From: Lytechinus pictus | Taxonomy: Eukaryota | Assembly: GCF_037042905.1 (NCBI RefSeq) | Contig: NC_087245.1 | Span: 12,836,001 to 12,900,000 of the forward strand | Length of the DNA: 64,000 nucleotides | Direction: 5' to 3' | In this document: positions 1-39,705 of the stretch, piece by piece | Layout of the letters: each line of letters starts with the position of its first letter | Position numbering within the stretch: position 1 is the first letter of the stretch | Notes under the pieces: generated by a model | The model's database searches: none | What the model saw: only the letters and a program-made list of their open reading frames with translations | Told to the model about the DNA's origin: nothing | Program-made: the position numbers and the translations under genes

Positions 1-613
1 AAATTTATGTAACAACTGGCTTTCCATAGTTAAACCACAACTTTAAACCCGAGTTTAAATTAAACCCGAGTTCAGAATACGGGCCATGGACTCCATCTCA
101 CACAGGAGTGTGACTGATCCAATCAATCTATGGAAAGCCACTGACACCGCAATCATACGTTTGCACACTGCCATGTGATTCTTCTTGTTAAAGGGGATAA
201 GTGCGTACACTCACAAACAAAGAATGATGGCATTACTGGCTTTACATAGTTGTGATTGATTCAATTGATCACAGTCCTTTCTAAAACAGGGCCATTGATA
301 AACTTTCAGCCCAAACTTTGGCACTTCACATTCCTGTCATTCTATCAAGCGTACCTTTCAAAACAGCTCCATGAAACACATCCTGGGTTCAATTTCACAA
401 GACTTATTTTTGAAAGATACCATGCCATGGTATGTGATTGGCCAATAGCAAACTTGTCATACAAATTTTGCATTTGTTGTTATAGCAAGTTTCTACTTGA
501 TTACTCATACTCTGGTTAGAAAAAATAAATAAGTAGATTAGTCTTTTGGTACAATTCTGCCTGCATACCGACAGTTCAAGTGAAATTTAGGGATGAGAAT
601 TCATTTGTGAGTC

Positions 614-3600
614 TCAACAGCAATCCAGAGCATTACCACTACTATCCATGCTATGAAGAGCTATTAAACTTTCCGACTGATCTTTGTCATCTGACGTTGG
701 TAACCTGGTAAGGAAAACAACAAAAAGAGAAACGAGGAATACGATGGAAACTATTCAAACAGCATTATAGTATTTTGAGGGCCCCTCCAAGCATTTTGGG
801 TAAGAAAACAGGATTCTCAACAAGCAGTACAATGATTGGGTGAGGAAACAAAGTCTATCCAAGAAGTATCAAACAGAAAAGTTTTTATTTGTAAATGGTA
901 GCTTCTATATGATTGAAACTTCTCTACACACAATGCAATATTAACCTCCCCCCCCCAAAAAAAAAAAAAAAAATGATATTATAGTTGCAAAACAATTTCT
1001 GCCTCATTGATCATCTGTGTTCAATAATACATGGATGCAAGGTGTGTCCTTATTGTGACTTCACACCTCTGCATAAATCTTGAAAGTTTTTTTTTTTAAT
1101 TTTCCAATCACTTTCAGTGCATGCTATCTGGCAAAAAGTTATTTTAACCACAGGGGAAAGTAGGCCTCCCGTGAAAATGAACCACACACATTTTGGGGAC
1201 GGAATGAGATTTAGCTTACCTGACATGAGGTGTTTTCCTTCTGCATATTGAGCATATCGTGCAGAAGAGGCAGCTTAGTCTATGAAAACAGTAGTAAAGT
1301 CTTTTGATGAGAGCCCATGCAGGATCCCAATCATTGTAATGGGTTAGGATAGCTACCACAATAAATGACACAAACACTGGTATGGCACCTAAGATGAACA
1401 TTAGGGAGAAGTCCACCTGTAAAGAAAATGAAAATGAGAGTAGAAATGTCCTGACATGGCGGCACACATATCCTCTGGTAAGGCATGCACTGTTATCATG
1501 GTACATGTAGTTATGTCTATCCAGAACAAGAAAAGACTCTGCATGGAGATGGTTAAAGACCATTAAAGGTTAAAGGTTATTAGTCCTCTTACATGTTTTC
1601 AGAGCTATAATTGTGTGTATCCTGATAATGTATGTTTTTAGGCACCTTGTTTTTATGTCTCAACAATAAGTACTTCAAAAACAATTTTCTATTTAAAATA
1701 AAATGAACCGAACATACTATGTAATATATTTTATCAAACATTTACTAGAATTGCTTTATGTTTACAGGCCTACAAGGGCTACGTTTAATTAAATTATTTC
1801 AGGAAATGACAGGGTATTGCACTCAACTTCCTTGTTAATTGGTGTCAACAGTCATTTCTTAATGCAATAGCAAGTTAATCTAACATGGTGTACATGTATA
1901 TCACATTACATAATAAAATACAGAATTTGACTTACATTATTATAATAGATATCTACAAGGATCGACATGGGGATAGTGAGACTCAAAGAAAGTGTTCCAA
2001 TCAATGATGATGTCAAGAAACACCCCCTGTGGAAAGAAAAAATGAAAGCAGATTTGGTATCAACTCCAGGAGAAGAAAATTAACTTTGTAATTAAAACAA
2101 AGATTCACAAGATTCTGTGCTAGCATGAAAGTGAATTATAAATAACAGTTTTACAAGAAATGAATACGAGTAATTATTGAATTCTGAAATGGAAAGAAGA
2201 CGATGTGAAAGTTGATTATCAAGACTTCGCAAATTAAATGGGCTTGGAGATTCAAAGGACATGTCTATCCTATGGAGAAAGGGCTGAATGTTCAAGGAAA
2301 TCATGAGGTTTCTTGCAATTTACGATAACAAACGTGCTGAATTATTGCCATATAATCTGTTACCACATGTGGTAATGTTGCTTCTGACACATTTCGCATG
2401 TGCTAAATTCCATGAGCACTCCTAAAACAAACTGAGGAAGTATTTGATATGCATGATTATAAATGAATCAGCCGACAATCTGCCAGACCCTTCAAATTTG
2501 GATTGGCATGAGCATATCTGATTGGGCCATACTCGCAAGAGAAATCGTGTTGGCCATTAAGACTTTGATTATAAGCACTCTATTTGCAAAACATTATTTG
2601 AAAATGTATATATTATTATTAAAGACCTTTTTTTTACTCCTTTTTCTACTTCCTTTATTCAACGCTGATTTTTCTGTTTTCATCAAAAGCAACATGCTAG
2701 CAAGGTACAAATTATCATTCTCATTTATCATATAAAAACAAACATGAATTTATGAAGGGATCCCCCAAAAAGTAATACTTGGCAAAAGCAAAGTGTGAAT
2801 ACCTCAACATCATAGTAATATTGTAGACATAGTATTTTGAACAATTTAAGAAATAAAAGATAGATATTGCCAATAAAGCTGACAAAATGAAAATCATGCA
2901 TGGGGACATTGGAGAACAAAAAAAGGACAGTTTTTCATGCTGCAATCATCAAATTATCAGGGATCAAATTCTTGGAAATGAAAATCTACCACCAGTGTAG
3001 TCTCCCTTTTCAATAGTGCAGTGCCCTTTCACCTAGAAGTCACAAGTGACCTATTTCAAGAACAATAGGACACATGGTGTATTTATATTCCACTTCATTC
3101 AGAAGATTAAAGACCTCCCTTCTGATGTCAAACACCATTCTTCCAACCAAGGAATCAAGCAGCACTCATCCCCACCACAATAGAAAGGATTAACACACCC
3201 ATACATTCTATACCTTACTACATGTCGCCCAAGGTATAAGATGGGTAGATATCATAAAATGACTGGGACCTGCGATTGTTATAAATCAAATGCAAACATT
3301 TCCTAATGCCAACACTACACATACCATAACACTGTCATTTCCTAATGCCAACACTACACATACCATGACACTGTCCATTTACAGGTGTGTGTATGTATAT
3401 CTTTGAAAAACTAGAATCAGCATTGATGGTATTGCTCAATTCTATTATTAAATTATTAAAAGTGGTTGTGGTTCCCCAGTCAAATTGTCTTCAGGAGTTG
3501 TTGTTTGGTTAGGGCATCCTCTGACTCCCCCCCCCCCACACACACACCCGGGGGGGGGGGGGGGCACTTACATTGACGAGTGGATACCATGCGTGACTAA

Positions 3601-6600
3601 AAAAACATGTAAAAAGGATGTCTTTTTCAAGATAGGGCACATTACGTACGTAACATAATAAGGATGTCAAAAACACTAAAATAGTGAAAAAAGGGTATCT
3701 ATTTTCGCTAGGAAGCTACATGTTTAGGGTCAAATTTGCGATGGTATAAAAAAATTAAGACTAAATTGTTTTATAAAGGATGTACTTTTTGCCCCAAGAA
3801 ACAACACTATGTTTTTAGAGTACGATCATGACTTGCGCGAGGTGTGGGAGGTGGGGCTGTACTAAGCCCAACGATGTACATGTAGGTAAAGGTAAAACTG
3901 TCGACCAACGTCCTTGACATAACAATTAAAATATTGCTGTACTTGTTTAGGGGTTCAATTCTGGGAATACTTGCCAAGACTATCGTTTGGTTTCCAATAC
4001 TTGTTAAGGGTAGGGTTTCATCACACGCCAATACTTGTCAAGGGGTGCATTTTCAGAATATGGAAAATATGTGTTTAGGGTGCTTTTGGAGACCCCATGG
4101 TCATGCATGGTATCCACTCGTCAATGGAAGTGGCCCCCCTGGGACACACACGGGAGCTCTTCTCCAAGAGTAATGACTGTACTCTCAGATATTTTCAGGT
4201 TGGGAATCTTACCCTTCGAGTCTTTCTCTTGGGGAAGTTGCCTTATGTTTACAGTTGTATAACAGACCTGAGAGGATATCCATTTCATATTTATGACATT
4301 TGATCTGACTTACCAGAGCCAGAGAAACTCTGAAAGCACTGTTCCCACTATGCCATTAACAGCAAGGTATATCCAAACGTTGGATTTAGGGAGTTGGAAC
4401 GGCTCTATGTTGGTGTAATGTAGGATGACTATTCCAGGCCAAATCACTAGGAAATTGAACAGACCAACAAAACCTGAGAGAAAACAAAAGGAAAGTAGTG
4501 TGTTATAACATGTGCATGAGCGAAGTCATTCTGAAATTTACTCTTCAAACAGTTCAAAGCATTTTGATACAGTAAAAAAATCAATTAAATTCCTTCAATA
4601 CATTTCAACCTTATCTATAATTTATTGCAGTAATATACTTCACATACCCATGTGACATACAATTCAATCAAACTGCACAACACTATCTGTAATATTGAAA
4701 TGAAGATAAAAGAGGCCAGAAGAAAAAAAAAGTAGATCTCTTTAAAATGAGGAATTCCAGATTACAATACAAGTAATTAAATGTCTCTAACCACTGGAAA
4801 ATATATAAAATGTTTACTACATTGTACATCTGGTTCCGGTTTCACTAAAAATCATTATAAATGACTAATTGACAGGCAGAGCATTTTACCATGCAGTAAC
4901 AGTGATTCTCAGCTGAGCATTTCACTGTACATGTAGTTGAATTGTATTGAATTGAATATATTCATTGTCCTTTGTAGGAAATTCCTTTCACATCAGGTTT
5001 ACAAAATTACAAATACATATGTACACATAGGCAGAGTGAAATAGACTTACAATACAAAATGCCATAGACGTTATCTTAAATAGAAAATGTACAATTGCAA
5101 ATATAGAAATTAATTAATTATTCAAGTATTAATTGGTATGTGATTCCATCAACAGCTCGAATACAGAACAGGTCTGTACTACGCTAGGGGTGGAAAGAGT
5201 ATTGCGAGGAAATAAGTTAGTGTGAACAAATATTAGTTAGCAGTAAATGGCAAATTGTCATCAAACACCATTATAGAACACATCCCAAGATGTTACAAAG
5301 CATGAAATATGACAACAGGAGCATAATTATCTAAGGATATTGTGCTTTGTGTGTATTATTAAACATTAATAACATGTGTAAATAGTTGCATTAATCTGTA
5401 GAGTACTCGAGGCACATATTTAGAAAGTTATGGATTGAACAGAATGTCTTTTCTTTAAGAATTCAATAGAGTAAACTCACCAAAAAACATAGGAATATCA
5501 ATCTTGTCCTCGTTATCTACTTTTCGTTTGAGTGCAACAAGGTAAACTGCATAGAAGAAAGCACCAGCTAAAGCCCAAAGGGAGCCAAGTTTAAACTGGT
5601 TATCCTTGGTCCTATCTGAGTAGCTGACCATAAATATTCCTCCGACGCTACAAAAAAATCAGACATTTAATCATTATTGAATGAAAATTTGATAACCGTA
5701 TCAATAATCAACAAGCAAAAAACATGTCATTCAACACAACAACCAAAAGAAAAAATAAATAAATAAAAACAAATAATTGTAATTATGAACAACACAAGGA
5801 AAAGAGAATAAAAAATAATGCAATAAATAAAATACAAACAATTACAAATAAAGTCAAGAATATATTACTACCAGTAAAAATAAGGTAATTGATAGATAAA
5901 AGATTTGATACTTTTATTAATAACTATATACATGTAGAAGGAAATGATGTCATCAGCCAATACAACCATATTATAAATCCACAATTAAAACTTCAATATA
6001 AAAAATCAGATGTGTGGGTACTTCGTAACGTAATTACAAGGAAATACCAATGGAATCTATTAACTTTTAATCACATATGCAATTTGAAACCTTACCTACA
6101 TAAGTTTTATCATGAAAAAAAATATTTACAAGTATCTTTTATGGATTATAAGGATATAAGTGTTACGAAGTTCTATTATTAATCAAAGATACTTCTATAT
6201 TAAAGATTATATTCATATTCAAATTCGTATCAAAACCTACAGCCACACAAAGTCTATATTATCAATAATGTACATAGCTTCATACAGTATGATGGTGTTT
6301 TTTCCTTTTTAAAATACCTTTCTAGAAACTATAGGTACATCACTATGATTCTTATAAATGAAGAAATTAGTATGATAGGAAATGACTTACCTCACTAGAA
6401 CAGCAAATAATTTTGTGAGTGTGAATTTATCACCTTGAGAACTGGGAAACAGTGCTGCTAAAACAACGGTAAATAATCCTAATGAAAAAGAACGAGAAAG
6501 TAAAGAAATAGAAAAACATTAAAATGGGTGCAAAGTCATATAACAAGGCTAATGGAGATTCTGTCACATTAGCACTTTACAATGGACAAACCACCCCACC

Positions 6601-9600
6601 CCCCAAATAAAACCCAACATATGTTGAACAATGAGAGATAAGTAATATTCTTTGCTTAAAACATTCTCTATAATTCCTTCTTCCAATTTCTTTCAGGAGA
6701 AACAGCCCAAGTTGTGAGCACAAGTATAGGATGGAATTCCTTGAACAACCTAGGTAAACCTATTGTACCAAGTACTGTATACATGTTACATAACAATAGT
6801 CATTCTCACAAAGCACCCTTTTATGTCTAGTATGCCAGTACTTACATATCATTTTCTAAAGCCTGCCTCACACAGATACTTTGCGATCCAATTTTAAAAG
6901 TAAATACAAATAAATAAATCATTTGTACACACTTTGAGGTAACAGAAAAGTACAGTGCGTATCAAAATCAAGTTTACACTTTGAAAAAGCCCTGGGAATT
7001 AAAAAATATACAACATGGGTAATTTTTTCACATATAACCTTAGGTTTGGGTCTCATCTCTCTAATGAAAGCAAAAGTTTGAACAGAGTGTTACACTTGAG
7101 TGAGCACTGTCCAGTTTTGTAAAGCTCACAGAAATCTGTTTGCGCAGAAATGCTCGTTTTCACGCTGTGTCAAGGGGAAATGGCGAAATCAAACTTACCC
7201 TGCGAAACATTTCTCATGCATTTTCCTTGCACTTTTAGTCAATTGAAATAAAACGGATACATTCAAGCATTTTGTAACAATTTTGCCACCCAAATTGAAA
7301 TTTCAACACATAGTAAGCACAACCTTTACCCTTTTGTGCTAGCTGGATCTGAGGGCATAACTGAATCTGAACAAAAGTTTGTATTAGACATCTCCAGCAT
7401 TTTTTCACTAAGTTTTTATCATTTAAAGTTGGTTTACATTTCATTTAATACTTGTTTCTCCACACATTTTCCAAGCTTGACAACGATTAACAAAATGAAA
7501 ATCAAGACTAAGCCATTTCATGTAAATCACAGCTCAGTGTAAACAAATATCGTCACGATGGCCTCTGTGTTTGGGGGAGTGGGGTGGGGCGCAATGCACT
7601 CTTCGAAGTGTTTTGGGCAAGGAACCGAGTTAAAAAAGGTAAAAGATATCTTCAAATCAATTTTACTAGCTAAATTCCACGTGTTCTTCATGATTAAGGT
7701 CTACTTTTATTCACATAACTATTTCAAAGTTCTGCGCAAATCATTTTTCACTAACTTTTCAAAAGTAAGTGGTGCTCACTCAAGCGGAAATATTTTTCGA
7801 CAGTTATATCGCCATTTGCTTAAATGGATCTGTACCAATGTTAAAATGTAGAATTTTTTTCAGGATATTACAAATGTATGATTTTACAGGATTTTTTCTA
7901 AGTGTAAACTTTTATTTGATACGCACTGTAGAGGTAGTAAAATTAAAATTACAGAATGATAAACCTTCTTCACTGAATATATAAATTGTTAAAAACTCAT
8001 ATTTATATCAGTGCCAACAAGGTGGGGGCAACTTGAAAATGATCTGAGTTATACTCCACATGTACAAACCTTGCATAGATTTCTTATGCAGCAATATTAT
8101 TCCTCTCCTGAACCAATTACATTTGATAACTCAGACCTTAAAAAATGTTTAAATTCAATGATATTGTGATTTGGCATTAAAACTGGATCAAATTGTATTG
8201 TACAATGCGAGGCAGACTTGAAAAGGAATCTATTACTTCAATACTTACCCGATGTCGATGACAGGGTATTGACAATAGCCATCTGGGAATCATTTAATGC
8301 TTCTTGATAAGAAAAATTGGCAAGGAACCACTGAAAAAAAAAAAAAAAATGATTTTTGTAAAGATCATAGTGATAATATGGAACAAAAGATTTAGCCTTT
8401 TCTTTGTGGGAACATTTTGTAGTCTAAAGGTAGAATATATCACATGGATGCAACTTCTCTCTATAGTGACCCAACAGTTTCATGACCAAAATCCACACCA
8501 AATATGCATGGAAATGTCCAAAAGGTTACTTAGCATGTAATCTAAAATAGTAACGTAGCATTGTAATAACCATTTCATATTCGAACCGCAGACAACTACA
8601 TTTAGATATAAACACCCTTTAGTCTTTGGTCCACACAGTACTGTCAGAATATCAAATATAGATTATCTGGACCAGAAATAGAAGGAATTCATCACAGAAG
8701 CTATACTTCCTTTACATTGAAGGCCAAATGCATCAGTCAGTTAAAATCATTTAATAATAACCTCTCAAATTCAAGGTTTTGAGTTTCAAGTATGTGGAAG
8801 ACCTAAAAAAAATGGGGGGATGTCTGTATTTCTAGGATCTGTTACAAAAACATTATTGTTGATAGTACATGTACCAGTATATATATGAATTATAAGCTAC
8901 AATTAATCAAACGAAACACAAGGGCCAATAAATGCCAGGGTTCTAAGAGCAATAACCAAGGCAAAATTACAACCACTAGGAAGTAACACTCATTAGTGCC
9001 CTGTGAAATGAGGATAAACAATCATTTTACCATGGATTTTAATTCTTAAGTCTTTTCCACAGACTTAAAATGAACCAAATCATAACATTGTTAAATTACA
9101 TATAATGTGGAAATTTAACACATGGTGAAATAATAAATAAAATTCACTATTCTTGAAGTACCTTATTTATTCTTGATGTTTGTTGAAATGCTTATTAAAC
9201 TGCTTGTGAATATTTTCTTTTAATAAAGTACAGAATAAACTATACCTAATTTGAATCTTTTGAGACAAAAAAATATGTTTGACTTAGGAGATATTCAACT
9301 TTATCATGTAAATAACACCTATTTTAATTCATCTGGTTTTAAAAAACTGCTTCAACTTAGGTGAATATTTAATTTATGGAAGGTGAACTTAAGCATAGTT
9401 TTGTACAAAATTCCAATAGATCTTACCACTAAACAAAACATGAAGCTAATTTTTGCGACTTGAGGAATGGTAAACTTGTTTGCTTGTTGAAGGTTTTCCT
9501 TTGCTCTCTGTGTAGCATTGTAGGATAACCTAGCCATCATGGCTTCATCTGCAACATCATCTGAAATACAAACAATGGTCACATGAATATACAATGAAAT

Positions 9601-12600
9601 TGTGAGTATACAGTGAACATACAAGAGTAATATGCCATTGTGTAATCTCTAGACAAAGACTATAATGGCACCAAAATAATGGTGTACAAGCGTTAATTTG
9701 TGATGCTTATCTAATAAATTGTCCATGTATCCAGGATGAGTTTACTTTCCATCTAGACTCGCTTGTATGTCCCATGGTTGTGAACTACCCTTAACTTAAC
9801 CAAAAAATATTAAATGACCTACAGTATATGCATGAAAAGTGAAAGCCACTTGAAATCATGTTCAATACAGAGTCCTTTATTCTACTCAGCATGCAAACTG
9901 CCCTTGAGAGAGAGATCCTGAAAAATCAATATTTGATTTTACCCAATGACTATATTTGATCCCTCCACATATAATCATTTTGAGCTTGTGCAAATAGCTT
10001 TCAACAATCCACAACGTTACGTCAATACAAACAGAATTTTTATTTGAATGATGAAAATTCAATACTTTATAATACGTTCATCGTGCATGCACATGTATGT
10101 CAAACTTTTAAACAATAACTGAGGATCTTTGAGTGAATCCAATTTATGAAAGAAGAAAAAGGAAAATGAATTTATGTACAGTAATCCATCCATTACCAGT
10201 TTTACATTACTTATTAAAAGTCAAATGTTCAAATGCTTACCAGACAAATGTCTGACTTCCATCAAATTACTAAATCGAACTCTGGAATTCAATGTTGCTG
10301 CAAAGAGGAAAATACACATATAATTTAAACATTTTCAGTATCAATATAGTATACAAATAATGCACGTAAGCGAGTGTATGCAGGGCCAAATAATGAACGA
10401 TGTGCGAGAAGAGCCAATGGATATACCGCATAGAGGTTCGCAGGACCAAGAGCGGTATATCCATTTGGCGAGTCGAGCACAGAATTCATTATTTAGGCCC
10501 TCAATGCACAAGAATGCCTGTATTGCACTATCCTGCACTCTGACGTCAGAGTGCAGGATAGTGCATTTTGGATACAATACTGCAATTCCCTGAATATCAT
10601 GTGATCCGATTTGGACCAATCAGATTACGGAACATTCTTGGGAGTTGTATAATAAACACTGTTTGGCAAAGTCAGAATTACTGACAGGTCATCCATGTGA
10701 ATTGTAGACTAAAAATGCGATAGATTTTAAAGTAAAAGAATTTTACTTTATCAATCATGTATGAGTACATGCATATCAACCTTACATTCTTTTAAGTTCA
10801 TACATTCATAATGAGCACAGGTCACTGATTTTACCATCACACAGTATACATTAATATTTCATGTACATGCAAAGTCATTGATATTAACAAAAAAAATTAT
10901 TAAAAAATCTATTGTATATACTCCAAAACCTAAATCAACTTACAAGAATCGCATGGCTCACTAAAACTGTTACTCCGACTGCTCTCTTTATCACTGTCGT
11001 TGAACTTGACTGGAACATACAGAGGATCACTCTGCAAAAATAACAATAGCATCAAAGTCAGACTTAATAAAAGTACAGTACATACATGCACATCATTCAA
11101 TTTAATCTTCATACATGCACATCATTCAATTTAATCTTCGATAATTTGCTTTCAACAAAAGACAATTCAACATATATATAGTAGGCCTACAGCGTGCACT
11201 TGGAATTTTCGCACATTTTGATAACATATTGTACTTTGAGAAAAACCTTTAAAAAAAAACTCAAACATTTTCATCCCCCCCCCCCCCCGAAACGAAAAAC
11301 CACCTTCAATAGCACCTGCATACATGAACATAGCATGTAATATTCATAAAGGATGCTCTTGCTTGAGGGCAAGGTAAAAAGCATCAGTACCATATTTTAA
11401 AGAATATATATTTTTTAAAGCGTGACATGTTCTTTGAACACTAACTATTTCTTTTGTATTTTATTATATGAAATATTAAATATTTTTATTTTCTCGTCAT
11501 TGTCATGTGAAATGAAGTTTCATTCCTCCCTGAATACTTGGAATTCCATTATCTTAATATTTTGTGCTTCAGGCAAGGAGGTCCTAATCGTCAAATTCGT
11601 AAAAATTGATATATTGTATAATTCAAACAATAAAAAACAAAAGAAATAGTGAGTGAGTGACGTCATCGACTCTCTCATTTGGATGTAACTGGCTCGTTCA
11701 TATAACTATTTTGTTAAAAATAAGCGAAACTTTGAAATGTTATAACTTTCTTATTTTACATCCGATTTTGATGAAATCTTCAGCATTGTGCTTGTCTGAT
11801 TTTTCTCTATTGATTCAAATCAACATTTTTCTGAGGTGGACTTGACCTTTAACAAATCATGTCAAGTGCATGCATAATTCTAGAACAAGTATATCAAAAG
11901 GTGGTTTCAGACCGCCTCGAAGTTCGTCAGTTCCAGGTATTCTCTGATCGGGAAATTTACCCCGATCAGAAAATACCAGGTATTTTGGTAATGTGAAAGC
12001 AAACTATGCGTAATTTCCCCGAAAGAAAATACCTGCTAAATAGTAGGTACTTGGCGAAATTACGAGAACTATCGCGGGGATTTTTCCAAGGTCGCAGGTA
12101 TTTTGGCAATGTGAAAGCAATTTACAGGAACTTTTAGCCCAGCGTGTCGTTGGGCGCGGGCGCCGTGGGTGGCTGCTGGGATAGTGGTTTTGAATCTCGC
12201 GCCTTGCCTGCTTATTAGACCATACTGCGCATGCTCCTAACTTCAGGAATTTATCCCGAAGGATATGTTTCGGGGCGGTGTGGAATAATTAATGGGTATT
12301 TTTTAGCCTAAAAATGTTCTCGTAATTTAACGGGGATTCTTGTGATCGAGGCGGTTTGAAACCACCTAATGAGAACTCTTCATCAGTAGCCATTCACAAG
12401 ATCAAATTAAGAAACCCCCATCTCCGTCAAGATACTAAGGGAATTTTCAGTGACCTTGAACTCTGAGCAGGTCAGCTTTTAGCTGGATAATTCACAAAAT
12501 TGGGTGCTAAAAAGAAATAAGATGACTCAGGATTGTATGAAACGCATGATAGTCCACTAATTGCATTCAATTTTAATCTTATGATTTCATTATTGGGTAA

Positions 12601-21600: not shown

Positions 21601-24600
21601 AGGGGTCTACATTTGTAAATCTGTGTACCAGTACAATATACATTTTTAATCTCCATATTATTGATGCAATGCACAATGAATTAATGTACCATGCATTAAC
21701 TGGGTTGTGGAGGCAATGGATGCATACATACACTGTAGTACACATATTAAAAGCATCTATATTAATCCAAAGAAATTGCATAAACTCACACTATATACAT
21801 GTACATGTAGTAAAAAATCCACATCAGAGAGTAAGTTTACATTACATACAATACATGCAGGGAATATTTAGTGAGATTCCTTGTACTGTACAAAAATATC
21901 TACTTGTTGCACATACATTTTTGATATATCCCATCAGGGATAGGACTCACACAGCATAAATAAACTCAGTATTGTAAAACCACAGTACTTCAATTCCTCT
22001 CTCAAATGCACATGAATATCATAATAAAAAATTTTTTTTTTCAAATGCAATGGCATTTTTTTGGCTGGGACTTGATCAACAGGACTCCAATTCAATTACA
22101 GGAGTGAGAAGCCGCTTATTATATCAGCACTTTGCTTCGGGCTCTGTCACGCTACATGTACAGTAGGGCACAGATATCCAAAGCATCCAGGCACCAACCA
22201 AAGCAATTCAGATTCAGGACCTTTGTTCATAAAAGTTGGGAATAAATTAATTCCTCTACAGGAAAGTGTAGGGAGGCAAGGGGGAGAATTGGGTGTTGAG
22301 ACATTCTAACGGCTAAAACAAACACAATGTATGTACACTGTACACAAATAAATGCAGATCATTATTGATTTGTAGTACAAGTAAAATCAGCTTATTTTTC
22401 AGATAGGCCTACATGTACATGTAATACAATTCAATTTATAGCAAAGTTGAATTCGCAAATCACTCTCCTCTACATGTACTAGGCTCCAAAGTATTTAAAA
22501 AAATATGAAAACTAACAATTGAGACCCCCATGTCTGTACACCTACATGTACAAGTGGACTGAAGATCCATGAAAAATTCATTCAATTGATATATTGTTTC
22601 TTAAACTTGTATGCCCCCCAAAGAAAATCCATCCAAATAGAAACAATTCTTTTTTATGAAAAGCTACAGCCTTGTCATTTAAAAAAAAATGGTGCTCCAT
22701 GTCTGCACACCCATTCATTACACATTGCTGACCAACACATTGCCAACATTAAACATTAATTTCTAGTATGGTACCTCCTGGTATCTTTTCTATTTATTTT
22801 CTTTGAGGCCGTTCTCATTACGCTTTCTAAAACTAGTTTACTGGAAACCGATTCAGGAAACCAGTTTGGAAGATCGCTTTGCTAGCGTTCCCACTTGATC
22901 ACACGAAAGTGGTTTTCAAAATCACTTCACGTAAAGCGCTCTTGTTGCTATGGAAATGCTCTCATAGGGTTGACATGTTTCGCGCGAAATTCGAAACCGC
23001 AGCATAGGCATTCTACACCTGTCTTGTGGAGTAGCGCGCTCAAAATGTGCGAAGATCGCTTCCCGAAGAACGGTTGTGTCCTCACTTACGCTAAAACCAG
23101 TTTAACGAGGCAAAGCGATCTTGAAAACTACATCGCGAGGTGGTTTTCCAAACTGGTTTGGAAGATCGCTTCCAAGACCGCTTCAACCGTTCTCACTACG
23201 CGTTAAACTAGTTTCCACTAAACTAGTTTCCAGTAAACTAGTTTTAGGAACGTAGTGAGAACAGCCTCTTTCAATGAGATGAATCTGATCTGTTTTGTAA
23301 TTTGTACAATATTAAACTTCTACAAATTCTTACGAAAAAAAATATGGAGCAAATTTCAAAATAGGCCTTGATTTGAAAATTTTGAATTTTAATATACATT
23401 GTAAGACCTGAGAGACAAATCAAATATTGCATGAGAGTAAACCAAAAAAAATGCTTTAAATAGTGTTTAGGGGATACTGGAAAATATTTTTGAGCTTTCA
23501 TTTTCTGTTCATATCATAAAAGGTTCAAGTGCTGCAAAGGACTGCTCCTCAGATACTTTCACTTTTATTTCAAGCTTTTGACCCAAGACAGCTGATAATT
23601 TTCATGACAAACATTTGTGTGAACTGTGAAGTAATACAGTTGAACTGTGTTCAGTGTGTAGTGGTTTTCTTTTCATCAAACACTGATTTCAACATGATCA
23701 GAGCTTGATCACTTTATTTTACATTGATCATGCAAAGACAGCTGATTTACAACTTAATTATTTCTTTTCATGGAGCACCTCTCAGTTAGACTATTCAACT
23801 TGATTCTCCTGTCTATCTCTAAGCGGATGTTTTTCTCACTTAGCAACGACTAGCCAATCAGATTTAAGCTGAGAGCAACCTCATGGTTAATTTTTACACT
23901 CCAACACACGCGGTAGAAAGTCTTCACCTAGTAAGGACATGTACAATTTCTGCTAGTCACTTTTCTTTGCAACACAACAAATAGCTCTTACTTTGGGATT
24001 TATTTTTCATCATCAGGATTTCAAGTTCTTCATTTTCCATCCTTTTGATTTTGGACATATGTAAATATATACTCATCGCTTGTGTTATCCAAGTGGACAG
24101 CGTGTAATATTTCTAGGAGAACATCTCGTGTCACGATCACCCTATTCGCGACGCGTTTCGCTGAGGCCTCACGTGCGCGGTCGTTCTTCATCGCGACATT
24201 GTTCTTCATTCGCATTTATCTTGTTTATGGACATCGCATTAAAGGATCCCGATGAATTACTCGCCACTAGATTTTCTACATTTTTGCCTTCGCATATTGG
24301 ACCTCAGTGCTGGTGAGTCAATCAGATATTTTTATGTTAAGTAAGTTCTCATTTCTTACAATTGGTGACCCCGACGTGATTTTCGAGACGCAACAATTTT
24401 CATCATGAATCAACAATCAGCTAATCCAGCTGCTGCGGTATCGCATGTCGCTGCAGTCGCCTTAAAGCTTCCCCCATACTGGCCGAACGATCCCGCTGTA
24501 TGGTTCGCTCAAGTACAAGCCCAGTTCATGACGAGGGGAATTACTTCAGAGGAGACTCAGTTTGCGTACATTGTGTCTGCACTTCAACCTGAGATTGCAC

Positions 24601-27600
24601 AGGAAGTCAGGGATATTTTAATGAACCCTCCTAAGGACACACCGTACTCGCACCTCAAAGCAGAATTGATTCGCAGGACATCAGTCTCGGAGCAGAAAAG
24701 ACTCCACCAGCTACTTACCCAAGAGGAACTAGGGGATCGAAAACCCTCCCAGTTATTACGTAGAATGGAACAACTGCTTGGAAGTGATCATCTTGATGAA
24801 ACAATCTTCAAACAATTATTTTTGCAGCGACTTCCACATCATGTCCAGACAATTCTAGCGTCAAGCCGCGACGACATGAAGGTGACACAGTTGGCAGACT
24901 TGGCTGATAGAATCATTGATATTGGTTCAACAAGTACTGTTTCTGCTGTTAGTTCGCCCTCGTCTTCTACTTCTAGTTCAGAGTTGTCACAACTTCAACA
25001 GCAAGTAGACAGACTTACATTTCAAGTGCAGTCATTGACTACGCAACTTCAACATGAACGTGGTCGATCTCCAAATAGGCGCCCTCAACGTCCAAATACT
25101 CATTCAAATAGACAACGTAGCAGGAGTAGCAGTCAAAAGCGTCCTCTCTGTTGGTATCACTGGAAACATGGTGCAGAAGCTCGCAAGTGTACACCGCCAT
25201 GTAACTTTAATCACGCTTCTTTGTTTTCGAGTGATTCTCAACAGCCTTCTTCCAACACCCATGCTCAGGGAAACGACAGAGCCAGCCGGGATTAAGAGCG
25301 ACGACTCGTGCTGGTGCTAAGAATAAGAATGGTCGCTTGTTCTACATTCATGATCGGATCAGTGGTACTCAATTTTTGGTAGATACTGGAGCGGAAGTCA
25401 GCATAATCACGCCATCTGCAGTTGACAGACAACGGCATACACATTCAGAGTACACATTGGAAGCGGTTAACGAGTCTCGCATTCGTACGTATGGTGAACG
25501 CTCCATCACTTTGGATTTAGGCCTTCGAAGGACTTTTCGTTTTGTTTTCGTGATTGCCGATCTTCCTACACCCATTATTGGAGCCGATTTCCTGGATGAA
25601 TTTGGACTGGTTGTAGATGTTAGGCATCGAAAACTTATTGACTCCACTACAAAGCTCACGATCGACGGCATCCGTGCTCCACTTCACACGCAGTCTGTCA
25701 GTCCTATGTTTTCACGTTCATCGACTACAGGCAGTGATGAGTATAACGCCATCTTAAAGGAGTACCCAGACATCACTCGTCCTGACTATCGCCCCAAAGC
25801 TGTCAAACATTCTGTTACGCACCACATTGTAACGACAGGACCTCCATGTTCCGCACGTCCACGTCGTTTAGCTGCTGATCGCCTGACGATAGCACGTTCT
25901 GAGTTCGAACATATGCAGGAACTGGGGATCGTTAGACCGTCGAGTAGCAATTGGGCATCCCCGCTCCACATGGTTCCCAAATCTACACCAGGTGATTGGC
26001 GCCCATGTGGGGATTACCGTGCTCTTAACGCTCGAACTGTACCAGATCGCTACCCAGTCCCACATATCCAGGATTTTACAGCATCATTGAATGGCAAGGA
26101 GATCTTTTCGAAGATAGATCTCATCAAGGCATACCATCAGATACCCGTTGAACCATCTGATATACCGAAGACGGCAATTACCACACCCTTCGGACTCTTC
26201 GAGTTTACGCGAATGCCTTTCGGACTTCGAAATGCAGCCCAATCCTTCCAGCGTTTGATGGACGAAGTGGTCAGGGGCTTGCCTTTTGTCTTTGTGTACA
26301 TCGACGACATGCTAGTTGCTAGTGCAACAGAGGAAGAGCATAAGGAACATCTCCGACTTCTTTTTGCTCGCCTTCACGAGTATGGTATAGTGATCAACCC
26401 TGCCAAGTGTGTGTTTGGTGTGAGTTCTCTCATCTTCTTGGGACATCACATCAGCGCAGATGGCATTCGACCCCTCGAGAAGCGCGTGGAGGAGATCCGC
26501 GAATTTGCTCGTCCTTCTTCTATTCGACAGCTCCGTCGTTTTCTAGGACTTGTCAATTTTTATCGACGATTTATCCCCAAGGCAGCAGCTATCCTCGCAC
26601 CACTTACCGACATGCTCCGTGGTCAGCCGAAGAGATCAACCAAGGCAGTTGAGTGGACGGAAGAGCGCATCAGTGCATTTGAGCGTGCGAAGGAGGAACT
26701 TGCAAATGCTGCTTTGCTTGTACATCCTTCGACAGATCTCCAAACTAACTTGATGGTTGATGCATCAGATGTAGCAGTCGGTGGCGTCCTTCAACAGTAC
26801 GCTGATGGTATTTGGAAGCCAATTGCGTTCTTTTCACAGCGACTCAAACCTACCGAAATAAGATACAGCACTTTTGGTAGGGAATTATTAGCTATTTACC
26901 TCACGATTCGCCATTTTCGCTATTTCTTAGAGGGACGCGAGTTCACAGTCTACACAGATCATAAGCCATTGACCTACGCTTTGCGATCGAAGCCTGACCG
27001 TCACTCTCCAAGAGAAATCCGCCAGCTAGACTATATCTCGCAGTTTACATCAGACATACAGCATGTACACGGTGTAGACAACACAGTAGCTGATGCCTTG
27101 TCTCGACTGCACGTGGATGCTCTCCACACATCATTTACTGTTGATTTTGATCAGATTGCAGCCGACCAAATTGATGATGAATGGGAAGAGATACAGAAAT
27201 CAACTTCACTGACATTTAAGCAAGTACCACGGCCTTCAAGCGACGGAATGATTTGGTGCGATGTCTCTACAGACCACGAGAGACCTTACGTCCCGAAGAA
27301 ACACCGCCGCATGGTATTTGAAGCGTTGCATAATATGTCACATCCTGGTGTACGCTCTACCCAAGCAATGATTACTTCACGTTTTGTTTGGCCAAGTATG
27401 AACAAGGACATACGTACGTGGGCTCGTTCATGCTTATCTTGCCAGCGCTCTAAGGTCCATCGACATATCAAGGCACCACTTGGAACCTACACTGCGCCAG
27501 ACGCCAGATTCAGTCATATTCATGTAGACTTAGTCGGTCCATTGCCTTCGTCAAATGGATATTGTTACATGTTAACCTGTATTGATCGGTTTACAAGATG

Positions 27601-30600
27601 GGCCGATGCTTTCCCAATATCAGACATTACAGCAGAGACTGTCGCCAAGACACTTGTGCATGGGTGGATTTCCCGATTTGGCGCACCCTCAACCATCACC
27701 ACGGACAGAGGTAGGCAGTTTGAATCGCAACTCTTCCAAGCACTCACTTCACTTCTTGGGAGCTCTCGTACACGCACCACTGCGTATCACCCTGCGGCCA
27801 ATGGTATTGTGGAGAGATTCCATCGTCAGCTCAAAGCAGCACTTCGAGCGCAATCTGATCCCAGCAAATGGCAAGAGTTTTTGCCTATCGCACTTTTGGG
27901 CATACGCACAACGGTAAAAGAGGATCTTGGATGTACACCAGCAGAACTGGTGTATGGAACTACACTGAAGGTTCCAGGTCAGCTGGTGGCACCAACGACT
28001 CCGGACTCTTTCTCCAACCCAGGCGACTATGTTCATCGCCTTCGCAACTATATGATTGACATCAACCCTGCACGAACACGTTCTCAAACTACTACATCGC
28101 ATGTTCCACCTGATTTGCAAGATTGCTCGCATGTATTTATCAGGTGTGATGCTGTCCGGCCATCACTTCAGCCGCAATATGATGGACCTTACAGAGTTGT
28201 TAGTAGGACGCCAAAGTTTTTCATTTTGGATGTGAAAGGGAAGAATGATTCCGTCAGCGTTGATCGTCTCAAGGTTGCTCATCTGCCATCTACTACAAGC
28301 ATGGACAATTCAATTCAACATCATGCATCATTTTCATCGCTACCTACTCCTACTGCCTCTACTCCACCGGTGCGGACAACCAGATCAGGTCGCCGCGTCC
28401 ATTTTCCAGCTCGTTTTGCCCAGTTTTCCAATGGATGAAAGGACATCTTACATTATCATGGGACCAATGCTTTGTATCGATCAACTTAACTCTTGTTCGT
28501 TGATCTAGGAGGGGAGTATTGTAGTGGTTTTCTTTTCATCAAACACTGATTTCAACATGATCAGAGCTTGATCACTTTATTTTACATTGATCATGCAAAG
28601 ACAGCTGATTTACAACTTAATTATTTCTTTTCATGGAGCACCTCTCAGTTAGACTATTCAACTTGATTCTCCTGTCTATCTCTAAGCGGATGTTTTTCTC
28701 ACTTAGCAACGACTAGCCAATCAGATTTAAGCTGAGAGCAACCTCATGGTTAATTTTTACACTCCAACACACGCGGTAGAAAGTCTTCACCTAGTAAGGA
28801 CATGTACAATTTCTGCTAGTCACTTTTCTTTGCAACACAACAAATAGCTCTTACTTTGGGATTTATTTTTCATCATCAGGATTTCAAGTTCTTCATTTTC
28901 CATCCTTTTGATTTTGGACATATGTAAATATATACTCATCGCTTGTGTTATCCAAGTGGACAGCGTGTAATATTTCTAGGAGAACATCTCGTGTCACGAT
29001 CACCCTATTCGCGACGCGTTTCGCTGAGGCCTCACGTGCGCGGTCGTTCTTCATCGCGACATTGTTCTTCATTCGCATTTATCTTGTTTATGGACATCGC
29101 ATTAAAGGATCCCGATGAATTACTCGCCACTAGATTTTCTACATTTTTGCCTTCGCATATTGGACCTCAGTGCTGGTGAGTCAATCAGATATTTTTATGT
29201 TAAGTAAGTTCTCATTTCTTACAAGTGCAAGAGACTTTGAGTAGATTTACATACACATGTATCAACAATTGGGACTCCCCATTCTTACACAATACTCAGA
29301 TTATTTGGTGCCTTAACTAACATTTATCACTCACTATCACATTGCATTGGGTAATTTCTTCCATTAGTCAATCTACTGACTGTAAATGAATTTATTTTTA
29401 AAGATTACATGTAGTACCACCATCCATACAAGTCATGTCTAATTAAATATTTACATGTATCTACATTTTTCATATAAACTGAAATGAGGAAATGCAAGCA
29501 AATGGATTGTACATTGGTAAATATAAACACTGAGCAGAGCCTTTAAAACTCATGGACAATTATGAAATACAAGTAGCAATGATAAGTACATATCCCAATC
29601 AGGCTGATGAAAATGTTGGAGTCAGGGGCAATTTTAGTCAATTCTTTTCAAAGCACTTCAGCTTGTGCATTCAAACGTCAAGAATAAAAATTAGTAATAG
29701 GAGAATGTTGAAATTAAGTAATTATATAGAGGGAACATCATTCTTTTATTAACCGGGATTAACAGATTTTGTTTGCAATTGAAATAAGGATAAATATGAT
29801 GTAGAACTGAAAATCTACATGTATCCTGGCAGAGCTTGACAGGATTAATGACAGCAACAGTAAAGCAATTACAATGTACTACAAAGCTGTATAATTACTC
29901 ATCAGGGCCCGTATTCCATAAACGAGATAAGCATGCTTAAGTCAAAAATCTAAGCATTTTGTCTTATTTTCTGTCTAAGACAAAATTCTTAGCCAAAACG
30001 CGTATTCCATAAAGAATTGGCTAAGAATTTTGTCTTAGAATTTGGCTAAGAGGTTTTGCGCGACTAAGACAGATATAGGATGAATGGCTAAGTAACTTTT
30101 CTTAAAACTGCAGAGTCTGTATTTCATAAATACAACATGGCTAAGAATTTAGCCCTAACTTTAAGACAGGTGTGAGTTGTCTTAATTGCTTTAAGACAAC
30201 CTGGTTTAAATCCAACAAATCATGGCCAATTTTTTTTTAGAATTTATACCTATATTGCATTTCGAGCTACTTCCTCAGTTTTTTAACCGATTTTCATGAA
30301 ATTTGGAACACACATTGGTCTTAAAGTAAGGAGGTGTGAGAAATTTTTTTTTTGCTTTTTCAGAAATTGTGTTGCCATGGTAACAGTATATTATGGCCAA
30401 AATTTAAAATTTAAATTACTTCATCAGTTTTCTACCAATTCTCATGAAAGTTGGCTCACACATTGGATTTGAGGAAAAGATGTGCAAGACACAATTTTGC
30501 ATGTGTTGGAAATTGTGTTGCCATGGTAACAGTATATTATGGCAAAAATTATGTATAAATCTTGCTATTCCAACTACTTCCTCAGTTTTTAACAAATTCT

Positions 30601-33600
30601 CATGAAATGTGGCACAAACATTAGTCTTGATGTGAAGATGGGCAAAACATATTTTATGCCTATATAAAAAAAATGCGTTGCCATGGTAACAACATATTAA
30701 ATAACGAAAATTAGGTGAAAAATTTGTGGTTTTAACTAGTTTATAATATTTCAACCACTTCTCATGATGTTTGCCACAAACATAAGTCTTGAGGTAAAGA
30801 TGTGCAAGACACATTTTCGCATGTGTCGGAAATTGTGTTGCCATGGTAACGGTATATTAGGGCAAAAATTATGTAAAAATCTTGCAGTTCCAACGACTTC
30901 TTCAGTTTTTAATCAATTCTCATGAAATGTGGCACAAACGTTAGTCTTGATTTGAAGATGTGCAAAGTATATTTTATGCCTTTATAAAAAATTGCGTTGC
31001 CATGGCAACAAATAAAATAACAAAAATTAGATGAAAATCTTGTGATTTGAATTACTTTATCAGTTTTCAACTGGTCAATTCTCCTAAAATGTTGGCGCAC
31101 ACAATAGTCTTGAGTTGAAGATGTCTAAGATATACTTTTGCCTGTATCAGATTCGGGTTGCTATGGTAACATATTATATAACGAAAATAAGGTGAAAATC
31201 TTGTAGTTCGAACTCCTTCATCTTTTTTCAACCAATGCTCATGAAATTTGGCACACACAATAGTCTTGAGTTGAAGATGTGCAAGACTATTTTTGTCTGT
31301 ATCAGAAATCGTGTTGCCAAGGTAACAACATATTATATAAAGAAATTAGGTGAAAATCTTGTGGTTTGAATCCCTTTATCAGTTTTACCAATTCTTATAA
31401 AAGTTGGCTCACAAATTGATTTTGAGGTGTAGATCTGCAAGACATATATTGGAAAATGTGTTGCCATAATAACAGCATATCAGATCAATAAATGTGTAAA
31501 CAGCATGATGTGTATTGAACTACTTCTTCATTTTATGACATTGGCCTATATGTCCATGAAATGTAGGTTTTGAGCTAAAATAATCTGCAAGACACATTTT
31601 CTCATTCATCAAAATATGTGTTTGTATGATAACTACATGTATACGCCAAAAAAAGATTAAGACAATGGTCAATGCTAACTTTTGTTTGGCTACATAGTCA
31701 TAGAGAACTACATGTAGCTGAGGGCTTAGTTCTAGTTTTTTTTTTTTTTTTTTTTTTTTTGGGGGGGGGGGGGGCTAGACCTCAAGATTTCGAACTACAG
31801 CCCCTAGTTTAGATCTAAGCCTAGATCAAGATCCTTTAGTCCTAGAAATAATCCAATGCTAGATCCCTAGCCTACTTCCTTTCTCAGGCCTAACGTTAAA
31901 TGAGTAGAACTAGACTAGATCTAGCCTACATTTACTATTTTTAGATCTAGAATCTACATTGAGATAGAGTCTACAAGTCTCTAGATCTAGACCTATTACT
32001 ATGACCCTATGTACACCTAGATTTGTATAGTTCTAGATCTAGATAGGGTCTAATTTTAGTCTAAGTGAGTAAGTCATTTAGTCTAGATCTAGGCCTAGGT
32101 TAGAGATTTCTAGATCAAACAGTAGACTAGATCAGCCAGTCCTAACGTTAGGGCTACCGGATAGGCTAGAAATAGAATCTAGAATGAATAGAAGAAAGCA
32201 CAGGCTAGGCCGCCTAGGCCCTAGATCTAAATTCTTATATAAATCTAGGCCCTAGGCCTAGTCTAGACTGAGCTGTTGCCAGTGTTGGTCTAGGTTTAGG
32301 CCTGTTTTCTAGTCCTGGAAACCTAGATCTAAACAAGTCCTCAAAATGTATAAAATAAAAACTCCAAACAAACAGATGGACCTAAAAAAAGCAAGAGTAG
32401 ATCTAGATAGATGTCTTACTGCGGCAGCCTGAACACGTACTGTGTCTAAAGACGTCGTGTCGAGGTCCCCGGGGCAAGATAGATCAGATGTCTAGACTAC
32501 TACTAGGACTAGATCTAACTTTAGGCATAGTTGGCAAGCAATGCGTAGCGATAGATCTAGCACTGTTGACAGGAATAACCGTCGTTTCTGGGGATTTATT
32601 TAAAAGTTTCTGACATTTACTGTCATATCACATTGGTGAGACTAGGCCAACGTAACGTTAGATTGTTTACAGTTTAGTGTCGTACTCGTAATATAGCGGA
32701 ACAACCAAAATACAGTCGGAGACTGAAGCTTTTGGTCTAAGTCAGATCTATTCTAGACCTACATGTAGATCTAGATAGATCTATCCCTGTCTTAAGGCTA
32801 AGCCAGGCTAAGTCCTGCATGTTCTAGGCCTAGACCAATACTAATATAGGTCTATCGTTAGATCTAGGCCTACGTAGCTTCAGTCTCAGTTGCTCCACTA
32901 CGGCACTGGACTAACAAAGTTACGTTTTGCTTCAGCCTTCAGGAAAGTAAAAAGTAAAAACAATGTTCAATTCTCCTCCAAACAGACGGATATTAGTTGT
33001 AGATCTTGGGCCTAGGCTAGATCTAGGCCTAATGTTAGACCCAAGACTAGTCTCAAAAGTTACAAATGTTTTCCCTTAGACCCTAGATCTACTTCAGTGA
33101 AGTAGAATAAAGATGTCGAGAGGAATCTATTCCATTTAGATTTTGACAAACAATACATGAAAAGTAATGAATGGGACTGATACATAAAAAACTGTGCAAG
33201 TCACTCGGTTTGGGATTGAAATGTTTTGGTAATTAAAAATATATAGATAATCTGAATAAAAAATTCTTACCATATATGGGTGATGAATGCTCTTCTTCTA
33301 CTACAATAGTTGTAATTAGTTTCAATAAAATCAAACTTGTTAAGAAAAAACAACTTCAATGACATTTTTGCTATTTTGTTGCAGTCACCCCTGCAGCAGT
33401 TTAGAAGGTCATAGAATTTGACTTTGAGACTTTGGCTTAGCCATATCGTCTGACTTGAGACAAATGTCTTAAAGTTTATAGAATATCCTTAGGGAAGATT
33501 TCTTAGACAAGCAAAATGCTAAGACAAATTGCTAAGACTTAAGCAAAAAGCTTATCTTGTTTATGGAATACGGGCCCAGGTCCTAGAACTCTACTGGATA

Positions 33601-34085: not shown

Positions 34086-34353
34086 CTTGAAGTCAGTCTT
34101 AGTAGTTGGTGAATGGCAAACAACCCCACACTCTACTAACCATGCAGTGATGATGGGAAATATGAAAGGTAAGAGCTGCCTTCAATCCAAAACTTGAACT
34201 TAAAGCTACAACAAACATCTACCACGGCAAACCACATTCCATGTAAATGGTTACTGTCCTGTTGCTACCTTGGCCTAGGTCTGTTGAAAAACAAAAATGT
34301 TGGTACAGATGAATTGTGATTTTAAAAATAATCATTGTGACCCTAAATCTCAT

Positions 34354-34516
34354 CAGGGGCTTGTTTCATAAAGGACTTACAACTGTTGTAGCTTTGCCAT
34401 TATGGCAACTACCATGGTAACAGGGCTCATCAGCCAATCAGAATCAAGGTTTCCATGTTAGTTGCCAAAATGGCAAAGTTACAACAGTTGTAAGTCCTTT
34501 ATGAAACGGGCCCCTG
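34354..34516. mobile_element. Small palindromic MITE
   Basis: GTTTCATAAAGGACTTACAACTGTTGTA ... TACAACAGTTGTAAGTCCTTTATGAAAC inverted arms. Confidence 0.75.
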
Positions 34517-35418
34517 ATCTTGGTCACTTCCACATGAGCCAAGTTACGGTTATTCAAAATTTCAACTCACAAGAAAAATACATATTTTCATGTAGGGCCT
34601 ACATGTACATGCATAAAAGTTTTTAAAAGCAAAATACCTCTGGGTCCCTTTTATCTTTGTCTTGTGGCCAAAATTCTAATCAAATGGTCAATATGCCTAC
34701 ATAAACACAATTTGAAATTTATTTATGTCCTTATCTTATATGGATAATGAGATACATTGATGTGTGAAATGATGACCTATGTTACCTTTAAGTTTTGACC
34801 TCATAACCCCAAAAGTTAGTCAGATCATCATTGCCACCCACATGTATACATGCAATGCCAACACTTGACAAAATGAGTAGTGGACAATTTACAATCTACA
34901 AAAATGTAGACCAAAAGCTTTGGTCTTATTCACTGTGCTGTTCTGCTGAACTATGTTGGCTACCTGTGTCTGGAGAGAATAGTCAAATGCCAGAAATTAT
35001 TTAATAAATTCCTAGAAAAGACAGTTATTTTTGTCTAAGGACAACCCAGCATTCCATGATTAAAAATTTGGACACAGAAATTCTGGTTGTCATTTTTTTC
35101 TTCAAATGTCAAGGAAAGAAAGAATGTCAATTATCAAGTTACAGGTAAATGTGCATATGTTAGTTTTTAAACTTTTAATAATAGTCCTATTTATTGTGAA
35201 ATGGCAAGCAGTCAGTCCCATCAGCATTTAAGTTGTTGAGCGGAACAAGTGATGGCCAGTCAGAGTCGAGAATGAAGCTTGTAAAACTAACCTTTTTAAG
35301 AGTGCTTTATCCTAGACTGAAATATCAGCTGTTTTGGAGGAGTTTTTGAAATATTTTCAGATTTTTCTCAGTTCTCCTACACAAATGGAAGCCTCCCATA
35401 GCCTAGGACTTGTAATGG

Positions 35419-39310: not shown

Positions 39311-39401
39311 AGCTAGCGCCTGCATATAACCGGTACGCGGTTAATCCGATCCGAGATCACTGAACGAGATGAACAATTACAAGTTTCATCCTGGCTTGAT
39401 G

Positions 39402-39608
39402 AATGATAATGGGGGTGGTGATTATGATGATGGTGGTGGTGGTGGTGGTGATGATGATGATGATGATGTTGATGACGATGTTGATGATGGTGGTGGTGGT
39501 GGTGATGATGATGATGTTGATGATGATGTTGATGATGGTGGTGGTGGTGATGGTGACCCGGGGGTGGTGGTGATGATGATGCATGTTGATTATGATGATG
39601 ATGATAAT
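39402..39608. repeat. Compound (GAT)n/(GGT)n trinucleotide microsatellite
   Basis: Directly visible; explains the spurious poly-His, poly-Asp and poly-Gly ORFs. Confidence 0.93.
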
Positions 39609-39705
39609 TAATGATGACAGCTAGGGGCGGCGGAGTGAAGTTGAAAGTGGGGGGCACAGGGAAGAAAGGGCACCTTTTTTCTTTCGAAAAAAGCACTATC
39701 TTCAA

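Follow-up and report, generated by a model that had tools for sequence, protein, structure and literature searches.

The window analyzed here is a 64-kb (64,000-nucleotide) stretch of the Lytechinus pictus contig NC_087245.1 (positions 12,836,001 to 12,900,000 of the forward strand). It carries a multi-exon gene of the SLC35 family (drug/metabolite transporter superfamily), the introns of which hold a large excess of the 8-bp palindrome TACATGTA. The gene was delineated by exon translations and splice ends. A Pfam scan of single exons returned a weak match to EamA as its sole match (E=0.024), Atlas features matched clusters of SLC35F, UAA and nucleotide-sugar transporters, and a search of PDB gave no match. 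We take the gene to be SLC35F5, and presumably a housekeeping gene. The one RNA run on the region had almost no exon reads and was not used as evidence on expression. The gene and the parts of it that matter for the word are as follows, with the ratio of observed to expected CpG given as CpG o/e.

600–34283, minus strand: SLC35-family transporter gene
~34283–33981 (ATG at ~34085), 21446–21300, 16582–16518, 11032–10943, 9562–9429, 8332–8249, minus strand: exons of this gene
6478–6391, 5647–5480, 4415–4312, 1418–1219, 711–~600, minus strand: its exons, continued
12801–35000: dense word field, whose 10.0 kb of unique intron (CpG o/e 0.19) hold 28 independent TACATGTA, or 2.79/kb; 13 TACAGTA/TACTGTA
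1–12800: 3' half of the gene, whose 9.1 kb of unique intron (CpG o/e 0.28) hold 5 TACATGTA, or 0.55/kb; 7 TACAGTA/TACTGTA
15741–15792: 11-bp tandem array with five copies of one TACATGTA site, taken as one site in the word counts

Counting overlapping occurrences, 46 TACATGTA were found in the window, 42 before position 35,000 and four after it (48987, 57790, 59252 and 59764). An earlier note on this DNA had estimated about 40 and about 4 by eye, and the 14 positions that it quoted are all exact starts. The Markov expectation for 1–35 kb is 1.1 at order 1, 2.3 at order 2 and 4.8 at order 3, while orders 4–6 absorb the word itself; the excess thus holds over orders 1–3, and the density is not uniform (42 vs 4). 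Counted as independent sites, there are 38 in 1–35 kb and 4 in 35–64 kb (p=1e-6). The enrichment is also specific: among the 256 perfect 8-bp palindromes, counted in 20.5 kb of repeat-masked gene DNA, TACATGTA (32 vs 2.2 expected) and TAGGCCTA (5 vs 0.17) are the top two, and the remaining 254 sum to 133 against 107 expected, by which a general palindrome bias was rejected. A single tandem repeat was rejected as the cause because the array accounts for just 5 of the 42 copies, and an assembly artefact because the sites are intact in an independent read run. The excess of TACATGTA in the window is therefore confirmed as real.

CpG depletion and the distribution of the palindrome

The word is concentrated where CpG is depleted. 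Unique intron DNA of the transporter gene has a CpG o/e of 0.24 and 33 TACATGTA in 19.1 kb, whereas repeat-derived DNA of the same introns, masked by hand, has an o/e of 0.82 and 5 in 14.5 kb (0.35/kb), and 35–64 kb an o/e of 0.75 and 4 in 29 kb (0.14/kb). Exons held none in the 1,383 bp counted, a sample of low power. Over 32 bins of 2 kb, TACATGTA density drops as CpG o/e rises (rho -0.47, p=0.006). It is to be noted that within the unique introns themselves the word is five-fold denser in the 5' part of the gene than in the 3' part (p=1.5e-4, with the boundary set post hoc), and that this gradient exists despite similar CpG loss, so neither methylation nor age alone sets the density.

CpG depletion across the body of the gene (0.24 in unique introns vs 0.69–0.75 outside) is that of an invertebrate gene-body methylation domain, such depletion being the usual trace of gene-body methylation according to passages of PMC8857917. 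On these grounds the transporter gene is probably methylated in the germ line, and the link of the words to a germline-methylated gene is supported indirectly by its CpG depletion. The gene is probably also transcribed there.

To see how far the pattern is one of gene bodies in general, the following features are relevant.

23657–29227, plus strand: young Ty3/gypsy-type long terminal repeat (LTR) retrotransposon in an intron; 708-bp LTRs 99.86% identical (one base), CpG o/e 0.92
40375–48250, plus strand: UPF0515 gene, with an exon at 45351–45499
57409–62596: death-domain gene, recognized by its death-domain exon

The retrotransposon contains no TACATGTA, as had been noticed before. Taken together, the CpG-rich young inserts (this element and five others, 8.2 kb) have none, and the older, CpG-poorer intronic repeats (6.3 kb) have five (p=0.016). 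The introns of the UPF0515 gene likewise have none in 5.1 kb, CpG depletion not being strong there, and the death-domain gene has 3 in 4.8 kb, that is, three of the four sites outside the main field. The excess is thus not a general feature of gene bodies, given that young inserts in the same introns lack it and that two other genes show it weakly or not at all. With the five-fold variation inside the transporter gene itself, the gene-body restriction claimed in the earlier note was too broad.

Some details of these features may be added. The retrotransposon has a 4-bp AGTG target duplication and open frames of 308 and 1067 amino acids, and its family name is our assignment from its gag-pol anatomy. 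The UPF0515 exon we take to be shiftless-like. The intron of the death-domain gene is CpG-rich (o/e 1.0) and made of diverged units of ~110–180 bp, and a trinucleotide tract, (GAT/GGT)n, lies at 39345–39620.

Related words, stacking and insertion at TA

TACATGTA does not stand alone, but belongs to a series of TA-flanked words. In the repeat-masked gene DNA, TACAGTA/TACTGTA, the canonical three-nucleotide footprint, was found 20 times against 6.0 expected (p=5e-6), and the 2+3 form TACACTGTA three times against 0.46; control words showed no enrichment (TACATTA/TAATGTA, 13 vs 9.0; TACAATA/TATTGTA, 13 vs 10.4). Beyond the gene there is no excess of TACAGTA/TACTGTA (4 vs 3.7). In the portions of the literature cited here, TACAGTA/TACTGTA is described as the canonical footprint of Sleeping Beauty, and Tc1/mariner footprints as matching the terminal 2–4 nucleotides of the element (PMC6943129), while TACATGTA is called a rare Tc1 footprint (PMC3520976), and footprints of non-homologous end joining with TA duplication at both sides are reviewed (PMC2874221). 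The series CA+TG, CAG or CTG, and CA+CTG comprises the expected leftovers of staggered cuts in CAG...CTG ends. Elements with CA...TG ends occur in the window.

6951–7930: non-autonomous element flanked by TA, its CAG...CTG ends matching at 23 of 26 terminal bases; candidate donor type for CATG, CAG/CTG and CA+CTG scars
46977–48048: TA-flanked element with CAC...GTG ends, 26 of 26 terminal bases matching
47469–47774, minus strand: remnant open reading frame within the preceding element, with no Pfam match
50851–51933: element with CAG...CTG ends, TA on the right flank and TT on the left, read by eye and missed by the TA-flank script

The CA/CAG bases of the words are indeed the terminal 2–4 nucleotides of TA-flanked elements of the same genome (6951–7930 and 46977–48048). 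Three Tc1/mariner elements had been proposed at 6953, 46979 and 50851; the CA...TG ends were found, and the left flank of the last is TT rather than TA. The remnant reading frame is presumably transposase-like, by resemblance, and is the only such frame in the window. At 46971–46978 the CAC-ended element directly adjoins TACATA, as though inserted into an older one-sided scar.

The modules are, moreover, stacked on shared TAs at 8 of 72 flanks (6 independent junctions), against 2.6% per TA side (p=5e-4).

22404–22423: stack of three modules on shared TAs, TA-GGCC-TA-CATG-TA-CATG-TA
21796–21809, 19179–19191, 20085–20097, 22153–22165, 34593–34607: further stacks

The palindrome extends into the flanks at 5 of 38 sites, against 10.9 expected, which argues against fold-back of local sequence as its source. 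One site grows, at 14737–14752, to a 16-bp perfect palindrome, GCC-TACATGTA-GGC plus one base per side, possibly GGCC-type halves that flank a CATG scar on both sides.

Gain of a word in place could be followed at the sites below.

38295–38302: TAGGCCTA, where pairwise alignment with the paralogous DNA at ~37476–37510 shows exactly six letters added at a TA
17678–17949: high-copy repeat (read depth ~150,000 vs ~45 in unique bins) that holds TACATGTA at 17736

A comparison of two loci, L052 and L127, showed the same six letters gained (+6 at TA, GGCC), beside an existing TACATGTA. Other genomic copies of the 17678–17949 repeat, which number in the thousands, are 7–8 letters shorter at 17736 and have no TACATGTA; the letters absent in them are 17737–9, 17741 and 17743–5, with support from a loose-end consensus. 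Since the other copies are shorter and lack the word, this TACATGTA was gained after its repeat copy landed. No further copies of the window repeats were found in the viral, metagenome or genome contigs searched. One-mismatch variants of TACATGTA number 57 against 20–33 expected, a surplus about equal to the exact surplus (36 sites), and continuing input plus neutral decay would fit this better than active maintenance.

Four of 22 read runs were aligned over 13150–22700. The results come from 12 indel rows (of 430) and 40 substitution rows (of 851), dominated by repeat pile-ups; 11 of the 12 indel rows lie in such pile-ups, and the tandem array has the other. Six dispersed sites (13280, 13618, 14291, 14741, 15968 and 16477) are intact in run X1, a close haplotype whose pieces span them with 0–1 gap letters. 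They are therefore real and shared, X1 being so close to the window that it has little power. Over 22042–22700, one X1 piece has 9 gap letters and falls 5 letters short, as an absent module might leave it, although it does not show one. Contigs of a second organism end at sites 16477 and 17308; TA runs follow both, so neither was counted. From a word share of 0.13, the sister species is estimated to be about 6% diverged.

Of the 14 TAGGCCTA in the window, 10 lie before 35 kb, and five of these fall within one island of 1.4 kb, rich in TAGATCTA, inside a larger element.

29905–33577: 3.67-kb element that has a 3-bp CAG duplication and whose inverted ends read GGCCCG...CGGGCC
31750–33120: promoter-shaped island inside this element, with 16 TAGATCTA, 5 TAGGCCTA, 3 TAACGTTA and 48 CTAG

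All 16 TAGATCTA of the window are inside this island, which has a CpG-richer core (o/e 0.91 at 32401–32800) and a splice-donor-like site at 32420 on the minus strand; it may be a captured or alternative promoter, or a first exon. The element, which we take to be Harbinger-like, also includes a 160-bp tandem array. The four TAGGCCTA beyond 35 kb are close to presumed, unmapped gene starts (38.3–38.5 kb and 55.5–56.4 kb), a hint that the type of scar may vary with the chromatin.

The same words co-occur elsewhere. At least 120 unrelated metagenome loci were picked for one stacked motif, and the search anchor was removed before counting. In 120 of them, TAGGCCTA was found 77 times against 2.9 expected, TAGCCTA/TAGGCTA 93 times against 27, TAGGCCCTA/TAGGGCCTA 14 times against 1.2, and TACATGTA 67 times against 8.2; as the loci were selected for the stacked motif, these counts document co-occurrence of the words and not their prevalence. 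The 16 viral matches had no excess and were excluded from the counts. One locus contains a candidate for the donor type of the GGCC series in another organism:

L131, 264–347: 82-bp hairpin flanked by TA and ending in GGC...GCC, with stacked modules in the middle

Origin of the words

We infer that TA-targeting cut-and-paste transposons of the Tc1/mariner type were repeatedly inserted and excised here and that the words are the scars left behind, fixed and neutral, a reading that we hold to be fairly probable. An element with CAG...CTG ends would insert at TA and duplicate it; on excision, each end would be cut 2–3 nucleotides inside, leaving 3' overhangs, and end joining would then most commonly retain CA+TG, and otherwise CA+CTG or a single 3-nucleotide end, CAG or CTG. 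Elements of a second family, ending in GGC...GCC, would yield TAGGCCTA, TAGGCTA/TAGCCTA and TAGGGCCTA. Stacks would arise because scars add new TAs in favored contexts that are hit again, and scars would accumulate with residence time and decay by point mutation. The likeliest reason for the patchiness would be that insertion or end-joining repair is favored in the chromatin of the 5' part of the gene, full-length inserts being purged. For the footprint origin suggested in the earlier note, the co-enrichment of TACAGTA/TACTGTA and TACACTGTA, the stacking, the paralogue pair with TA on one side and TAGGCCTA on the other, and the TA-flanked CA...TG elements all speak in favor; a clean 6-bp indel of TA versus TACATGTA was not among the results. 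The further suggestion of a mark of chromatin state gained no support as a function, as the surplus of decayed variants is about as large as that of exact words, which is as expected under neutral decay, and a passive record fits better.

Several points weigh against the transposon-scar reading and must be set beside it. The gain in L052/L127 could be a copy from 6 nucleotides downstream. None of the four TACATGTA sites inside repeats displays a clean +6 gain: 17736 is +7/+8 with extra letters, 57790 and 31634 have no net gain (in alignments of 65–70%), and 59252 is ambiguous. There is no enrichment of one-sided TACATA/TATGTA (36 vs 33) or, despite the CAC-ended element in the window, of TACACTA (1 vs 3.8). 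Two of the three candidate donors lie in the motif-poor half, and no TA-flanked GG- or GA-ended donor (GG...CC or GA...TC) was found in the 64 kb. Moreover, CpG loss alone does not set the density, as the gradient within the gene testifies, and three of the four outside sites are in an intron at CpG o/e 1.0, contrary to a strict methylation rule. Among 52 of the 120 metagenome loci (mixed, at least 2.5 kb), density had no rank correlation with CpG (rho 0.04), the pooled values being 0.26/kb below o/e 0.8 and 0.11/kb above. Finally, the gene has 33 + 20 scar-like words for one intact Tc1-like element, a ratio of ~50:1, so the footprint model requires efficient germline end joining plus loss of full inserts; in C. 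elegans isolates, by contrast, 93 insertions stand against fewer than 10 deletions, and germline footprints are varied, according to the part of PMC4490562 drawn upon here.

The patchiness could have another cause even if the scar origin is the same, namely the age of the DNA: old conserved introns would be compared with recently turned-over repeat and immune-gene DNA at 35–64 kb, which would have had no time in which to acquire scars or shed CpG. Repeat-derived intron parts do resemble the outside half in density and CpG content, and at least 11.2 of the 29 kb outside are recognizable repeats, masking there being based on in-window repeats only. Nonetheless, the unmasked 17.8 kb outside still contain just two sites, a lower density than that of the unique introns (p=6e-8) or of the 3' half (p=0.049), and the five-fold gradient lies inside equally CpG-poor unique introns, so that age appears an unlikely account, if one to be taken seriously. 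Chromatin is a plausible cause of the patchiness, one that these data do not separate from DNA age. A different process of insertion at TA is also conceivable, in which a domesticated transposase or other nuclease makes a staggered TA cut and end joining favors self-complementary 4-mers (CATG, GGCC, GATC). The dominant inserts are indeed all self-complementary, no GG/GA-end donors were found in the window, and scars far exceed elements; this process does not, however, predict the non-palindromic series CAG/CTG, CA+CTG and GGC+CC, which element ends explain, and no candidate enzyme was identified. We consider it improbable.

Readings that dispense with insertion fare worse. A reading of the words as binding sites under selection, for instance for the Irx-type homeodomain or MYB-related factors suggested in Phytophthora, and as a chromatin mark with a function, would accord with the sharp enrichment of the exact 8-mer; in passages of PMC3520976, TACATGTA is an abundant promoter motif and an Irx preference is cited, and the abstract of PMC11134190, on a MYB-related factor, contains the word. 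This reading is nevertheless very unlikely: the surplus of mismatch variants extends to both inner and outer positions, the sites originate within repeats, are amplified in tandem and share stacks with modules of other kinds, and the sister words would require a separate cause. Least probable of all is that fold-back mutation (hairpin or template switch) or CpG decay built the palindrome from local sequence. The domain is CpG-depleted, and TG on the left or CA on the right is enriched in the flanks (17 of 72 vs 9%); against this, there is neither palindrome extension nor a general palindrome excess, TACGTGTA/TACACGTA are absent from the gene body, and the insert at 38295 is no mirror of its flanks. 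CpG decay as the source was rejected; neither TACGCGTA nor TATGCATA, the alternative product of decay, was found in the window.

An extension of the transposon-scar reading is offered more tentatively, and we regard it as possible rather than likely: different TA-targeting families would read different germline chromatin, with CATG/CAG scars in the 5' portions of methylated, transcribed gene bodies and GGCC/GATC scars on promoter shoulders, so that word densities would form a fossil map of germline chromatin and of excision that would otherwise go unseen.

Comparison with known systems and significance

HIP1 of bacteria is a highly iterated 8-bp palindrome that occurs throughout coding DNA and is maintained by substitution. 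The present case is similar in that one 8-bp palindrome is far over expectation, and different in that TACATGTA is patchy, intronic and at least partly insertional; an even, HIP1-like spread that includes coding DNA was not found, the three parts of the window having 2.79, 0.55 and 0.14 per kb. With Tc1/mariner footprints, as far as they are described in the cited sections of PMC6943129 and PMC3520976, the words share TA-flanked inserts equal to the terminal 2–3 nucleotides of CAG...CTG elements, and the 7-bp form is enriched here. Those footprints are known from single experimental excisions, and the 2+2 form (TACATGTA, Tc1, C. elegans) is called rare, whereas here it is the commonest; the words here are also fixed at up to 2.8/kb, stacked, outnumber the elements, and run parallel to a GGC series for which no donor was found in the window. 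Motif-1 of Phytophthora is the identical palindrome, abundant and with a stacked example in Table 1 of PMC3520976; in the portion cited it is taken as a transcription-factor site upstream of infection genes, the footprint idea being set aside, while the words here are intronic, decaying and accompanied by sister words. Passer, a pogo element, targets TA, prefers expressed genes and their 5' parts, and leaves footprints of 0–4 bp (passages of PMC9976928), and is thus a precedent for the gradient; as described there, its insertions are in human cell lines and are not fixed scars, and the likeness drawn here is one of integration bias.

Among the papers listed in the literature searches, which covered few subscription journals and no supplements, none described TACATGTA scars at such density in the gene bodies of animals. 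What is new is the link to CpG, the dependence on time in place, the density gradient and the parallel series of scar words, along with the scale and spatial bias; the mechanism itself is known from single excisions.

If the words are scars, the excisions fixed in this transporter gene exceed the surviving elements about fifty-fold, and sequence alone would allow one to measure how often excision occurs in the germ line of an animal, how deep the cuts are and which repair is chosen. Excision is the unrecorded half of the life cycle of DNA transposons, and such scars could be a readable fossil of germ-line transposon activity. Through the tie to CpG-poor gene bodies, a long-standing question would become testable, namely whether the methylation of invertebrate gene bodies accompanies the movement of transposons through housekeeping genes or is a response to it. 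For motif discovery there is a caution, in that abundant intronic palindromes may be mutational residue. Should the chromatin-map reading be true, any invertebrate assembly would suffice to read the map, and some of the reported 'TACATGTA promoter motifs' would be scars and not binding sites.

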